Shown: positions 28,373 through 31,088 of the stretch, in pieces | Layout of the letters: the number at the start of each line of letters is the position of its first letter | Numbering within the stretch: position 1 is the stretch's first letter | Source of the DNA: Lachnospiraceae bacterium UBA7202 | Lineage (GTDB): Bacteria; Bacillota; Clostridia; Lachnospirales; Lachnospiraceae | Reading direction: 5' to 3' | NCBI GenBank assembly: GCA_002490705.1 | Contig: DKUO01000023.1 | Span: 6,535-70,534 of the forward strand | DNA length: 64,000 nt | Notes under the pieces: model-generated | Told to the model about the DNA's origin: nothing | The model's database searches: none | Seen by the model: only the letters and a program-made list of their open reading frames with translations | Position numbers and translations under genes: made by a program

Positions 28373-29662
28373 CTATTTTCTCAATCTGCCGCCGCCAACC
28401 CCCGCCTTCTTGTTTCCCGCTCCGACACTTGGCTTCACGATTTGGGCCTGCGCTGCATGCTGGGATCGTTTTCGCGAACCGGTCTGTCCAGAAGCTGCGG
28501 AAACTTTTGCTCGAGGAGCTGGTTTAGAAGTTACGGCATGTTTTGCCGGAGGGGGAAGTCCGGAAGCGTCGGCATGTTTTGTCGAAGATACCTCTTGGTG
28601 AATCTCCAATGGATTGGGATGCGCTGCCCGCTCCTGATTATACCGGAATCCCCGGACATAATCAGGATCTCCCGTCCTTTCAAACACATCAAATTTACCT
28701 CTCTTGGTTTGTACACTACCTCTACTTGCAAGCCCTGCCATTCCCAAAAAAAATTTCAACAGGGAGAGTGTCCACTGCTCATTACGCTCTATCTGCTCCA
28801 ATTCTGCCCGTTTCTCAGGCAGAGATATCCCCCGTTGCTCTAACTGTTCCAACAAGGCGGTCGCTTCATTATATATGGGGTCCCCCAACTCCATACTTTT
28901 TTGGATGTTGCCCCCGATATAAACCTCGGATATCCGTGTAAAATCTACAGCATATGAAAAACCGATCTCTGTGTCATTGCCGTTGTGTGCCCATCTACGG
29001 CTCTCAACTACAAACTCTATAGTAGAAGTGCCCTTGCCCTTACTGTCTGTACTGGCTGCCGTTCGATAGGTAAGCCCGCTTACTTCACTTGCCCTCAATA
29101 CGTAAAAAATGCCGCCACTTAATCCCACTGAAGCAAAATTATTGATATTCTCCTGTATGATTTTGGAGCTTAACCGTCCTTCCGGACGGGTATCTTTTAT
29201 GAATCGAAAATAACATACATCCCCTGTTCTGTTTCCCGCATCTTTTGTAAAAGTCGCTCTGGACAGGCTCCTTAAAAAATCACTACACAGCAGTCCCCCT
29301 CCCGCCAATACAGATGGCAGATTAATCATATTGCTGCCCTGCATAAAAGCCACATGCTCTTTTTGTAAGCAGTCAGTGATCGTCTTTTGACTGATCCTCC
29401 TATCTGCGCGCTCTTGCCGAAGGAGGCTCTTTTTTTTCGCCCACCGGCTCTCAAAATTTGTCCGTGGAATCGGCTCCTCCACTACCGCTTGCCTTAACGG
29501 CGGCAATGCCGGTTCCACTTGTGTCGTTCTCCTTTTCGGCGGCGGCTGTTGTACTCTCGGTGCTGGCTGTTGCTCTCTCGGCTGCGGCCGCCTGTCCCTT
29601 GACGGTTCCTGTAGCACCGGTACTGTCAATCTTTTACCGTTACCCCTTGGTTTCCCGCTCAT
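28373..29662 (-). CDS. Hypothetical protein: a globular core of about 260 aa flanked by basic Pro/Gln-rich disordered arms
   Basis: 429-aa ORF, 14 nt downstream of the preceding gene. I see no TM helix, signal peptide or recognisable catalytic motif. Confidence 0.7.
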   Translation of the reverse strand: MSGKPRGNGKRLTVPVLQEPSRDRRPQPREQQPAPRVQQPPPKRRTTQVEPALPPLRQAVVEEPIPRTNFESRWAKKKSLLRQERADRRISQKTITDCLQKEHVAFMQGSNMINLPSVLAGGGLLCSDFLRSLSRATFTKDAGNRTGDVCYFRFIKDTRPEGRLSSKIIQENINNFASVGLSGGIFYVLRASEVSGLTYRTAASTDSKGKGTSTIEFVVESRRWAHNGNDTEIGFSYAVDFTRISEVYIGGNIQKSMELGDPIYNEATALLEQLEQRGISLPEKRAELEQIERNEQWTLSLLKFFLGMAGLASRGSVQTKRGKFDVFERTGDPDYVRGFRYNQERAAHPNPLEIHQEVSSTKHADASGLPPPAKHAVTSKPAPRAKVSAASGQTGSRKRSQHAAQAQIVKPSVGAGNKKAGVGGGRLRK

Positions 29663-29676
29663 TGTCTACGCCTCTA

Positions 29677-30477
29677 CTATTTGCCGCCACCGTCGGGCTT
29701 ACGCAACGGTTCCATTGCCTGTGTAAGCAGCGACGTCAGTTTGGCCATGCCCTCTGACGGCGGCTGCTGGATAGCCCTTGCGTGAATCTTATAGGTTGCC
29801 GAACTGTCGGATTCCCTTTTATGGACACTGTCAGAGGAAACATTTCCTGTTATGCTGGCATTTAATCCAAACCACGACTTGAAGTTAACCGTTGAGCCGA
29901 CATCCATCTTTGTCTCATCGCTTTTCATATCGCTGGTTTTGACTTCCATATCAAAATCCACGGTCACCTCGTCCATCTGGAAGGACGGTATCTGCACCAG
30001 TGCCAGCAGCGGCGCATTGATCTGCATATTTTCAACTTCTACGCTTGTCTCCCCATCCTTTTCGCTGATAACGGGACGAGGCACTTCAAACGTAAGGATG
30101 TTGGTTTCCTGTTTGGTTTCCTCTTTTTCCTCTTTTTTCTTTTTTTCCCTGTACGCCAGCTTCATCACGGTATCCACATAGGTTGCCGCAAGCTGCTGCT
30201 GCACCTTTGCCGCCGCCAGAAACGGCCCTCCGATCAGTGACTCGATGGGAAGTCCTGCAAAAGAAGACGCTACACCATTTCCATCCTTCTTCGGTGTATC
30301 CCCGTCTACTACTGTGCCTTCTCCTGTTGCCGTGGTTCCTTCCTGAAGATTGGTATTAGACAGCGCTGCCGCCTGACCGATGTTTGTCAATGCCTGATTG
30401 ACAATCTCATTTCCCACATTCTTTGCGTCCTCATTCTGTTCTGTCACATTTTGTTCCGTCACATTCTTTTCCGCCAT
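29677..30477 (-). CDS. Hypothetical protein, DUF2589-like (large paralog)
   Basis: 266 aa, with an AAAGGGGAAAGAG RBS. It shares four collinear motifs with the upstream 181-aa ORF: IESLIGGP...A, LTFEV, APLLALVQIPSFQMDEVTVDFDMEV and PPSEGMAKL. The family name comes from memory and has not been searched. Confidence 0.7.
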   Translation of the reverse strand: MAEKNVTEQNVTEQNEDAKNVGNEIVNQALTNIGQAAALSNTNLQEGTTATGEGTVVDGDTPKKDGNGVASSFAGLPIESLIGGPFLAAAKVQQQLAATYVDTVMKLAYREKKKKEEKEETKQETNILTFEVPRPVISEKDGETSVEVENMQINAPLLALVQIPSFQMDEVTVDFDMEVKTSDMKSDETKMDVGSTVNFKSWFGLNASITGNVSSDSVHKRESDSSATYKIHARAIQQPPSEGMAKLTSLLTQAMEPLRKPDGGGK

Positions 30478-30515
30478 ACTCTTTCCCCTTTCACAGTATC
30501 TTTGCTATGTTACGT

Positions 30516-31061
30516 TTACAGTTCCTTTAAATGATTATCCGAAATTTTCGCAATTCCCTCCACGGGCAGGGCATTTTTAAATTGCAAATCCATTTCGTCT
30601 ATCATCCCGTCATTTGATCCCGACGGCCTGCATTCCGCCATTACCTCACCATCCTGCGCATAAAGTTTCAGTCTCAGCTTTACATCCACAGTCTCTAAAC
30701 GCATGCTGGTGTTATGTACCAGTGCGGGCATCGGAATATTGCGTATCTCATTTCCGTCATGAAATGACAGATTAAACATAACCGGTTTATAATTTTCATC
30801 CTGTTTCTCATATCCCCGTTCAATATAATGCCTTAATGTCTCCTCCTCCAGCGCAGCGTTTACGCTGCTGACGGCGGCGCCTATGCCCTTCAATAAATCT
30901 TCTAATAACACTGCCATTTCTTTTCTCCCAACTATCATTTTCTCCGTTGTCCCGTTTATAACAAATTTTATTTCGCAATCCTTACTGCTTTTCGTAACAT
31001 TCTTCAACAACATTCCACTTACTCTGCCGCGCCGGCTCGCAAGATATGTATTGTCAATCAT
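30516..31061 (-). CDS. Hypothetical protein, DUF2589-like (small paralog); start codon uncertain
   Basis: 181-aa ORF. Motifs LEDLLKGIGAAV, MFNLSF, IPMPALVHNTSMRLETVDVKLRLKL and LPVEGIAKI. The first ATG overlaps a consensus -10 box, so Met17 (31013) or Met42 (30938) may be the true start. Confidence 0.65.
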   Translation of the reverse strand: MIDNTYLASRRGRVSGMLLKNVTKSSKDCEIKFVINGTTEKMIVGRKEMAVLLEDLLKGIGAAVSSVNAALEEETLRHYIERGYEKQDENYKPVMFNLSFHDGNEIRNIPMPALVHNTSMRLETVDVKLRLKLYAQDGEVMAECRPSGSNDGMIDEMDLQFKNALPVEGIAKISDNHLKEL

Positions 31062-31088
31062 TATACTTTACACAGCCCTTTTTGTCAA
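31060..31088 (-). promoter_or_regulatory. Consensus sigma-70 promoter ahead of the orphan three-gene operon
   Basis: On the minus strand: TTGACA (31088-31083), exactly 17 nt, then TATAAT (31065-31060). Confidence 0.6.

Follow-up and report, generated by a model that had tools for sequence, protein, structure and literature searches.

Retrons, Lamassu, CBASS, Thoeris, and Zorya are modular defence systems in which a conserved core is combined with interchangeable effectors. Other points of comparison are polymorphic toxin loci and the small secreted proteins that come in pairs, among them EsxA and EsxB (WXG100), which accompany LXG toxins. The locus described here lies in a 64,000-nucleotide stretch of contig DKUO01000023.1 (positions 6,535 to 70,534) of Lachnospiraceae bacterium UBA7202, hereafter the window, and contains two genes of the DUF2589 family, a short one (gene 1, S) and a long one (gene 2, L), followed by a third gene that encodes a basic protein (gene 3, E). 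It represents a modular cassette that is widespread and so far undescribed, consisting of an S-L core, an accessory protein (A) in most lineages, and an interchangeable E. Nothing comparable to the S-L core is described in the resources searched, namely the literature, the PADLOC models, and solved structures. DUF2589 itself enters the literature through two incidental transcriptome mentions (metabolic or antibiotic-response), one of them on a group of short Archaeoglobus genes, and no functional study of the family was found there.

An initial annotation of this DNA had described an orphan operon of three same-strand open reading frames (ORFs) and had raised the possibility that it encodes a heteromeric conflict module, which is a reasonable reading. 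The three ORFs were recovered on the minus strand at 30516..31061, 29677..30477, and 28373..29662, with the reported gaps of 38 and 14 nt, and the start of the first was then revised (see below). Given in positions of the whole window and in their order on the minus strand, gene 1 (S) to gene 2 (L) to gene 3 (E), the elements of the cassette, which spans ~2.7 kb, are as follows.

31060..31088, minus strand: putative sigma-70-type promoter, with TTGACA at 31088..31083, a 17-nt spacer, and TATAAT at 31065..31060
30516..30917, minus strand: gene 1 (S), short acidic DUF2589 paralog of 133 aa, pI 4.85, net charge about -9
29677..30477, minus strand: gene 2 (L), long acidic DUF2589 protein of 266 aa, pI 4.74, net charge -13
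28373..29662, minus strand: gene 3 (E), variable slot, 429 aa, pI 10.2, net charge +25, with a GAGG ribosome-binding site (RBS) 9 nt upstream

S and L together carry a charge of about -22, which is set against +25 for gene 3. In line with the initial annotation, none of the three proteins belongs to a family with an established function: genes 1 and 2 are DUF2589 proteins, gene 3 is without a match, and a comparison of all three with PADLOC-DB v2.0.0 returned no match.

The S-L core and its accessory protein

A DUF2589 alignment was searched against one genome per species, which yielded 80 loci, or 81 with the window added, and S, L, and A were assigned by hidden Markov model (HMM) searches of all ORFs in these loci. 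S lies directly upstream of L in 76 of the 81 loci (window included) and the pair is found in at least five phyla (Bacillota, Spirochaetota, Pseudomonadota, Chlamydiota, and Bacteroidota), so the operon is not the orphan it had been taken for. Most of the loci come from Lachnospiraceae and Oscillospiraceae, and the remainder include Treponema, Burkholderiaceae, Oxalobacter, Rhabdochlamydiaceae, Crocinitomicaceae, and Erysipelotrichales. The tandem S-L arrangement is the invariant unit of the cassette.

The affiliation of gene 2 with DUF2589, as suggested by the initial annotation, is borne out by a match to PF11655 of 103.4 bits (E = 1.9e-29) over profile positions 1-153 of 154, and gene 2 thus passes the gathering threshold (23 bits) across the full domain. 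The protein, for which 264 homologs were found, consists of a variable low-complexity N-terminal extension (residues ~1-70) and a DUF2589 core (residues 77-253). Its N-terminus, encoded at 30410..30477, carries a tandem NVTEQ-NVTEQ repeat together with low-complexity Lys/Glu and Gly-rich stretches. Close homologs vary in length at this end (261-269 aa), and their DUF2589 core is nearly invariant.

Gene 1 had been listed as a 181-aa ORF, which was over-called; its start is Met49 and the protein has 133 aa. The ATG of Met49 lies at 30917, with GGGAG 7 nt upstream. This start was chosen because a homolog that is 70% identical to gene 1 (P0127) is also 133 aa long and begins with MAVLL, because the DNA of the window is conserved with that of locus L003 from the RBS of Met49 onward but not upstream of it, and because the counterpart of gene 1 in sister-strain contigs is called as 133 aa. 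Furthermore, the -10 hexamer at 31065..31060 overlaps the ATG at 31061, so the start of the 181-aa version would be unusable by a transcript from that promoter. Codons 1-48 of the listed ORF (30918..31061, minus strand) are non-conserved, overlap the promoter, and were judged to be non-coding.

Taken alone, gene 1 scores 14.7-16 bits against DUF2589 in Pfam, which is under the gathering threshold of 23. DUF2589 is matched by five of six members of the gene 1 family (best E = 1.9e-8), and the gene 1 orthologs of other loci align with gene 1 end to end. Direct comparison of gene 1 with gene 2 was uninformative (BLASTP E = 0.02; shallow hhalign probability 2.5%), and the homology was resolved only by deep family profiles. 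When family alignments of 84 short and 85 long proteins were compared by hhalign, the two families aligned with a probability of 95.3% and E = 2.1e-8, collinear over 140 columns, whereas a reversed-sequence control gave E = 0.066. Since the family-profile alignment is strong and the reversed control is weak, gene 1 and gene 2 are true paralogs, as the initial annotation had proposed on the basis of four collinear motifs, all of which fall within the full-length S/L profile alignment. From these alignments, S can be described as essentially L minus the N-terminal extension and with its central hairpin shortened.

One locus has a further S-like ORF, a weak match with E = 6e-4, ~3 kb downstream of the main cassette (L073:9778-10188), and a transcriptome paper reports four adjacent short DUF2589 genes, AF0414-AF0417, in Archaeoglobus fulgidus. 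Multi-copy DUF2589 arrays may therefore exist.

Immediately 5′ of S, 58 of the 81 loci (within L029-L089; e.g., L057:1317-1544) encode A, a conserved acidic ORF of ~75 aa with the motif F-[IL]-[TS]-D-L-G ... G-R-Y-A-[VA]-W ... H-Q-x-V-E-V ... D-L-x-x-L-x-x-K-Y. A has no match in Pfam or among PDB sequences, and the idea that it is a DUF2589 fragment was rejected; it is unrelated to S or L. Across their families, A, S, and L are uniformly acidic, with median pI values of 4.99, 4.90, and 4.79, respectively. The A HMM found no match in any reading frame of the window or of its closest relatives (L001-L028), and A was either lost by the window's clade or never present there. For the same reason, the 48-codon "extension" of gene 1 was rejected as a remnant of A.

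The structure of L was modelled with AlphaFold2 (AF2). The model, which has a predicted local distance difference test (pLDDT) score of 61, contains a helix (78-108), a hairpin (127-156), a long hairpin of low confidence (181-225), and a C-terminal helix (243-254). The strands at 193-213 and 227-236 are conserved family-wide, alternating, and Ser/Thr/Gly-rich, with a polar turn that contains the invariant residues R221 and D224; considered as a possible membrane-spanning hairpin, they alternate in polarity and have a weak hydrophobic face. A Foldseek search with this model against PDB and BFVD gave nothing at E < 0.1, with a best PDB E-value of 1.8. The top non-significant matches are the aerolysin, anthrax protective antigen (PA), and lysenin pores and the MS and LP rings. 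Aerolysin, PA, and lysenin match at E-values of 3-7 with TM-scores below 0.15, and no similarity of L to pore formers is thereby established. PDB sequence and profile searches with L, A, the gene 3 core, and the effector of a related locus (L019) returned chance matches only (among them PilO, gelsolin, and EMC10). The reported lack of a transmembrane (TM) helix also held, as no 19-residue stretch in any of the three window proteins exceeds a Kyte-Doolittle value of 1.33, and neither a signal peptide nor a strongly hydrophobic face was found in the window proteins or the L strands.

The TTGACA-17-TATAAT promoter noted earlier matches the consensus at 12 of 12 positions and is the sole perfect match in the 7 kb scanned (26500..33500). 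If this site works as a promoter, as its sequence suggests, transcription is predicted to start near 31053, leaving a leader of ~136 nt before the gene 1 ATG; this leader matched no Rfam family. Inside gene 1, an antisense promoter-like site (ATGACA-18-TATAAT, 11/12, at 30764..30793 on the plus strand) is probably fortuitous, as it lies within AT-rich coding sequence. At the other end of the operon, gene 3 is followed after 55 nt by the probable start of the Zn-dehydrogenase (28317), and no terminator-like site was found in between, in agreement with the earlier description. The suggested AT-richness of the region was recovered in part: the bin that holds genes 1 and 2 has 45.5% GC against ~50% for the window, but the signal is weak, with several other bins equally low.

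The interchangeable gene after L

To be counted in the slot, an ORF had to lie on the strand of L, encode 100 aa or more, and start -60 to +120 nt from the L stop, and 77 loci have enough downstream sequence to be scored. The slot is filled in 58 of these, with a gap of ≤5 nt in 19 loci (including overlaps of -4 and -1) and of 6-35 nt in another 21. The slot genes form sequence clusters, and a relationship among these effector families was rejected, as profile-profile comparison by hhalign gave inter-cluster E-values of 0.01 or more. The three genes of the window are therefore not a conserved triad; the third gene is swappable, and homologs of gene 3 occupy the slot of only 10 loci. Different effector types follow L proteins that are 70-77% identical, and even behind identical S-L pairs the third gene differs or is missing. 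Identical pairs are also found in different flanks, adjoining transposases. At L094, L095, and L096 (past 8801), an identical S-L pair in the same upstream context precedes a gene of 339 aa, one of 311 aa, or unrelated metabolic genes, and the comparison places an apparent recombination breakpoint right after L.

Domains in the slot were called at the curated thresholds of Pfam, and six types lie above them (HNH, ADPrib_exo_Tox, Exo_endo_phos, Glyco_hydro_25, GmrSD_N, and PT-HINT).

L037 cluster, slot: HNH
L039, slot: ADPrib_exo_Tox, with a basic N-terminal arm of +11.5
L055, slot: Exo_endo_phos (EEP nuclease)
L018:2083-2703, 85 nt past L: Glyco_hydro_25 muramidase, in Clostridiales
L073:6681-7556, 110 nt past L: Glyco_hydro_25 muramidase, in Bacteroidota
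L041:6628-7659, 66 nt past L: GmrSD_N/DUF262
L092:8773-13353 and L093, after L: PT-HINT of 159 aa, followed by a protein with an HD domain and one of 806 aa with a deaminase domain

Endonuclea_NS_2 and a PD-(D/E)xK family also occur in the slot, below the Pfam threshold. Pfam searches with every member of the large clusters c0, c1, c3, and c4 returned nothing beyond the known HNH match; by eye, c0 shows CxxC...GGH...CxxCN, which may be a His-Me finger, and c1 shows E...PD...DxT...K, which may be of the PD-(D/E)xK type. Basic proteins make up the families g3, c3, and c5, several with Pro/Lys/Arg-rich tails, and the L039 ADP-ribosyltransferase (ART) also has a basic tail. Both a variable pool of toxin domains (HNH, ADPrib_exo_Tox, Exo_endo_phos, and Glyco_hydro_25) and a pre-toxin processing domain (PT-HINT), as in polymorphic toxins, are thus present in the slot, and no N-terminal trafficking domain was recognised in the slot proteins. 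No conserved or tightly linked immunity-like fourth gene was found after E, the next gene often being encoded on the other strand or separated from E by hundreds of nt.

The arrangement at L092 and L093 is polymorphic-toxin-like, and no S gene was called upstream of L there. The recurrence of Glyco_hydro_25 (GH25) in two distant phyla is unexplained if the effectors act intracellularly. The GmrSD_N protein of L041 is probably a stand-alone defence gene beside the cassette rather than an effector. When the A, S, L, and E families were run through PADLOC, the only strong matches were to the DUF262-type NsnA, PD-Lambda-3_A, and PD-T4-2_A; these likely come from this single protein, as far as can be said from a tool that does not map matches to members.

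Gene 3, the E of the window, has no match in Pfam, NCBIfam, PADLOC, or PHROG. Its family is very rare, with five homolog clusters among 5.8 billion proteins and, in an exhaustive search with a profile of its core, ten matches among 1.84 billion representatives. Every gene 3 relative found in the loci occupies the slot directly after L. The conserved core of ~170 aa (residues ~95-265) lies between low-complexity arms with charges of +8.5 and +12, in keeping with the basic arms first noticed in this protein. The core motifs are GF-x-HGG...L-x-x-IL-x-x-G-x-L-x-S-x-x-LR, G-x-GVYFRFV, G-x-SGG, S-x-D-x-K, and NNSEI-x-F, and the invariant residues of the family are Y151, R153, G180, G184, D206, E232, I233, and F235.

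Within this core, the family has the order His...Tyr...Glu, with spacings of 43 and 81, which was assigned by motif resemblance only to the H-Y-E triad of ARTs (H24/Y65/E148 in diphtheria toxin; PMC8120803). At the first position, most relatives carry His; the window, L001, and L002 have Gln108 instead, and L019 has Thr. In the window, the Gln108 codon lies at 29339..29341, within FMQGS where most members have GF-x-HGG. The L019 relative scores 16.2 bits against DarT in Pfam (cutoff 22.5) and is collinear with it over profile positions 7-178 of 201. PDB profile searches with the gene 3 core and with the L019 effector gave no match, and the AF2 model of gene 3, built from a six-sequence alignment, is unusable (pLDDT 37). 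As a lead, to which somewhat less than an even chance is given, the gene 3 core may be a divergent H-Y-E (DarT/PARP-like) ART. If it is, Gln108 may mean that binding of NAD is altered or lost in the window protein.

Genomic setting and explanations for the cassette

The initial annotation had placed the operon beside two-component system and ABC transporter genes involved in peptide sensing, an association that proved specific to the window's sister strains, since only there do such genes adjoin the cassette. In one sister strain (L099:302-2161), the response regulator is preceded by an AAA_21/AAA_23 ATPase (445 aa) and a protein of 171 aa, where the window has a divergent ABC ATPase (33388..34308) instead; the region upstream of the two-component system is thus strain-variable. 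Elsewhere, some loci lie near toxin-antitoxin (TA) modules, transposases, AAA_15/21 ATPases, a Lit-like peptidase, Schlafen/AlbA_2, DUF262 defence genes, or polysaccharide and teichoic-acid loci, and no secretion-system genes recur near the loci. A phage origin was rejected, as tblastn gave no matches among 50,697 phage records. Six distant matches were found on plasmid records, several of which are megabase-sized.

A strictly conserved core, a translationally coupled terminal gene that is exchanged horizontally and comes for the most part from toxin families, the lack of an immunity gene, and a patchy distribution across phyla together form the signature of a conflict system. A new modular conflict system is the likeliest reading. 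In its broadest form, held tentatively and at a little under an even chance, S-L, joined by A in most lineages, would be the core of an unrecognised, phylogenetically widespread class of prokaryotic conflict systems, in which an acidic two-paralog oligomer would gate, that is, sequester, activate, or export, unrelated toxin enzymes that lack immunity proteins. The effector of the window would then be a new, very rare, nucleic-acid-directed branch of ART-like proteins tethered by basic disordered arms. In a more specific form, which is the preferred mechanism although it falls clearly short of an even chance, the cassette would be a conflict system of the abortive-infection or toxin-control type in which S-L sequesters E until a trigger arrives. 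S and L would co-assemble as an acidic hetero-oligomer, which would bind E through its basic arms or nucleic-acid-binding surface and keep it inactive. A stress such as phage infection would free E to attack nucleic acid or another target. In favour of this form are the S-L adjacency in at least five phyla, the end-to-end homology of S and L, the coupling of E to L in 58 of 77 loci, the unrelated E families exchanged behind closely similar or identical S-L pairs, the absence of an immunity-like gene, the opposite charges of S-L and gene 3, the basic tails of several E families, and the TA, AAA_15/21, Schlafen/AlbA_2, transposase, and DUF262 genes near several loci.

Several findings weigh against this reading. 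The absence of a coupled E from 19 of the 77 loci implies a core that can work with no effector. Among the E families, c0 and c1 are near neutral rather than basic, and no short motif common to the families was seen that could dock to S-L. GH25 muramidase, ADPrib_exo_Tox, and PT-HINT are more often associated with toxins that are exported than with effectors that abort infection from within the cell, and gene 3 of the window carries Gln at the putative catalytic His. Structural support is lacking, the model of L being mediocre and that of gene 3 unusable. The proximity of several loci to defence genes is a raw observation, and many contexts are housekeeping, including the window's own flanks (ADH, UDG, MFS, and GH3).

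The exported or polymorphic-toxin character of the E domains (PT-HINT, ADPrib_exo_Tox, Exo_endo_phos, Glyco_hydro_25 twice, and HNH, with Endonuclea_NS_2 below threshold) would also suit a role in toxin release or delivery. S-L would then form a β-hairpin-rich ring, pore, or carrier particle that exports a cytoplasmic E for interbacterial or anti-host antagonism, comparable to bacteriocin release assisted by holins or lysis proteins, or to the paired small proteins that accompany secreted toxins. The long conserved strands of L, alternating and Ser/Thr/Gly-rich, and the long hairpin in its AF2 model, of low monomer confidence, are compatible with such a structure; pores and rings head the Foldseek matches, though not significantly. 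E is optional, and a specific docking motif would be unnecessary. However, with no immunity gene after E, kin cells and the producer would be unprotected. The proteins have no signal peptide, TM helix, or strongly hydrophobic face, the Foldseek E-values are all above 1, secretion-system genes are not recurrent nearby, and the cassette is absent from phage genomes. Release or delivery is an unlikely explanation.

It is similarly improbable that A-S-L is a self-contained structural or stress assembly with no role in conflict, and that the genes after L are either neighbours with no relation to it or insertions at a boundary prone to recombination. This would account for the loci without a coupled third gene (19 of 77), for the plainly housekeeping genes found after L at some loci (MCP, NagB, and dihydroxy-acid dehydratase), for the housekeeping flanks of the window, and for the lack of PADLOC matches. 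It would also fit that expression is documented in the literature solely by transcriptomes of metabolism or of the response to antibiotics. Yet 40 of the 58 third genes start ≤35 nt from the L stop, 19 of them ≤5 nt and often overlapping, and such tight junctions argue for co-translation of L and E. The slot also repeatedly holds toxin- or nuclease-type domains and families not otherwise known, rather than random genes, and the gene 3 family is confined to it. A conventional type II TA pair, with E as the toxin and S or L as a dedicated antitoxin, has very little probability. Small acidic proteins encoded 5′ of a basic toxin-like protein, with tight or overlapping junctions, do recall such pairs, but dedicated antitoxins co-vary with their toxins, whereas S-L pairs remain 70-100% identical while E is replaced by unrelated folds. 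This swapping essentially excludes a conventional pair. In addition, S-L persists without E at 19 of 77 loci, neither S nor L has a DNA-binding antitoxin domain, and the core comprises two paralogs and A rather than a single antitoxin.

If S-L is indeed the core of a conflict system, the cassette would give DUF2589 its first functional context. It would also constitute a new and small system of three to four genes, A-S-L with an exchangeable effector, which is common in Lachnospiraceae and Oscillospiraceae of the gut and also present in spirochaetes, proteobacteria, chlamydiae, and Bacteroidota. Since the core has no enzymatic, NTPase, or membrane domain, the way in which it controls or delivers unrelated toxins in the absence of an immunity protein could show a new principle by which toxins are controlled. 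The slot further points to at least five toxin-like families outside Pfam, namely c0, c1, c3, c4, and the gene 3 family.

Comparison with known systems

With respect to PF11655, gene 2 is a full-length member, and gene 1 falls into a branch of this superfamily whose proteins are short and divergent. PF11655 is described as a single domain without a function, however, and the tandem S-L pair, A, and the swappable effector appear in no description found.

For gene 3, the closest likeness is to DarT and other H-Y-E ARTs. The spacings of 43 and 81 in its family are near the 41 and 83 of diphtheria toxin (PMC8120803), one relative is collinear with the DarT profile, and the basic arms would suit a nucleic-acid target. 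On the other hand, that relative scores 16.2 bits against a cutoff of 22.5, and the window protein has Gln for His and no Pfam match. Unlike DarTG, the operon has no DarG macrodomain or NADAR antitoxin adjacent to gene 3, its neighbours being the two DUF2589 genes, ADH, UDG, and MFS.

Polymorphic toxin loci and WXG100 pairs resemble the cassette in that S and L are tandem small acidic paralogs without signal peptides, encoded beside variable toxin domains (PT-HINT, HNH, ART, and muramidase). However, S and L are alpha/beta proteins and not helical hairpins, and E lacks LXG or other trafficking domains. The cassette also differs from them in that no immunity gene follows E and no type VII secretion system (T7SS) genes lie nearby.

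The S-L core differs from retrons, Lamassu, CBASS, Thoeris, and Zorya in its composition, as it has no reverse transcriptase, SMC, cyclase, TIR, NTPase, or membrane motor, nor any domain recognisable as enzymatic or sensing. Roughly one core in four is without an effector, and the cassette has no PADLOC match and no known phage phenotype. In its organisation, however, it is like these systems, with a core whose unrelated effectors are swapped between close relatives, no immunity gene, and a patchy distribution across phyla in which TA or defence genes are sometimes nearby.

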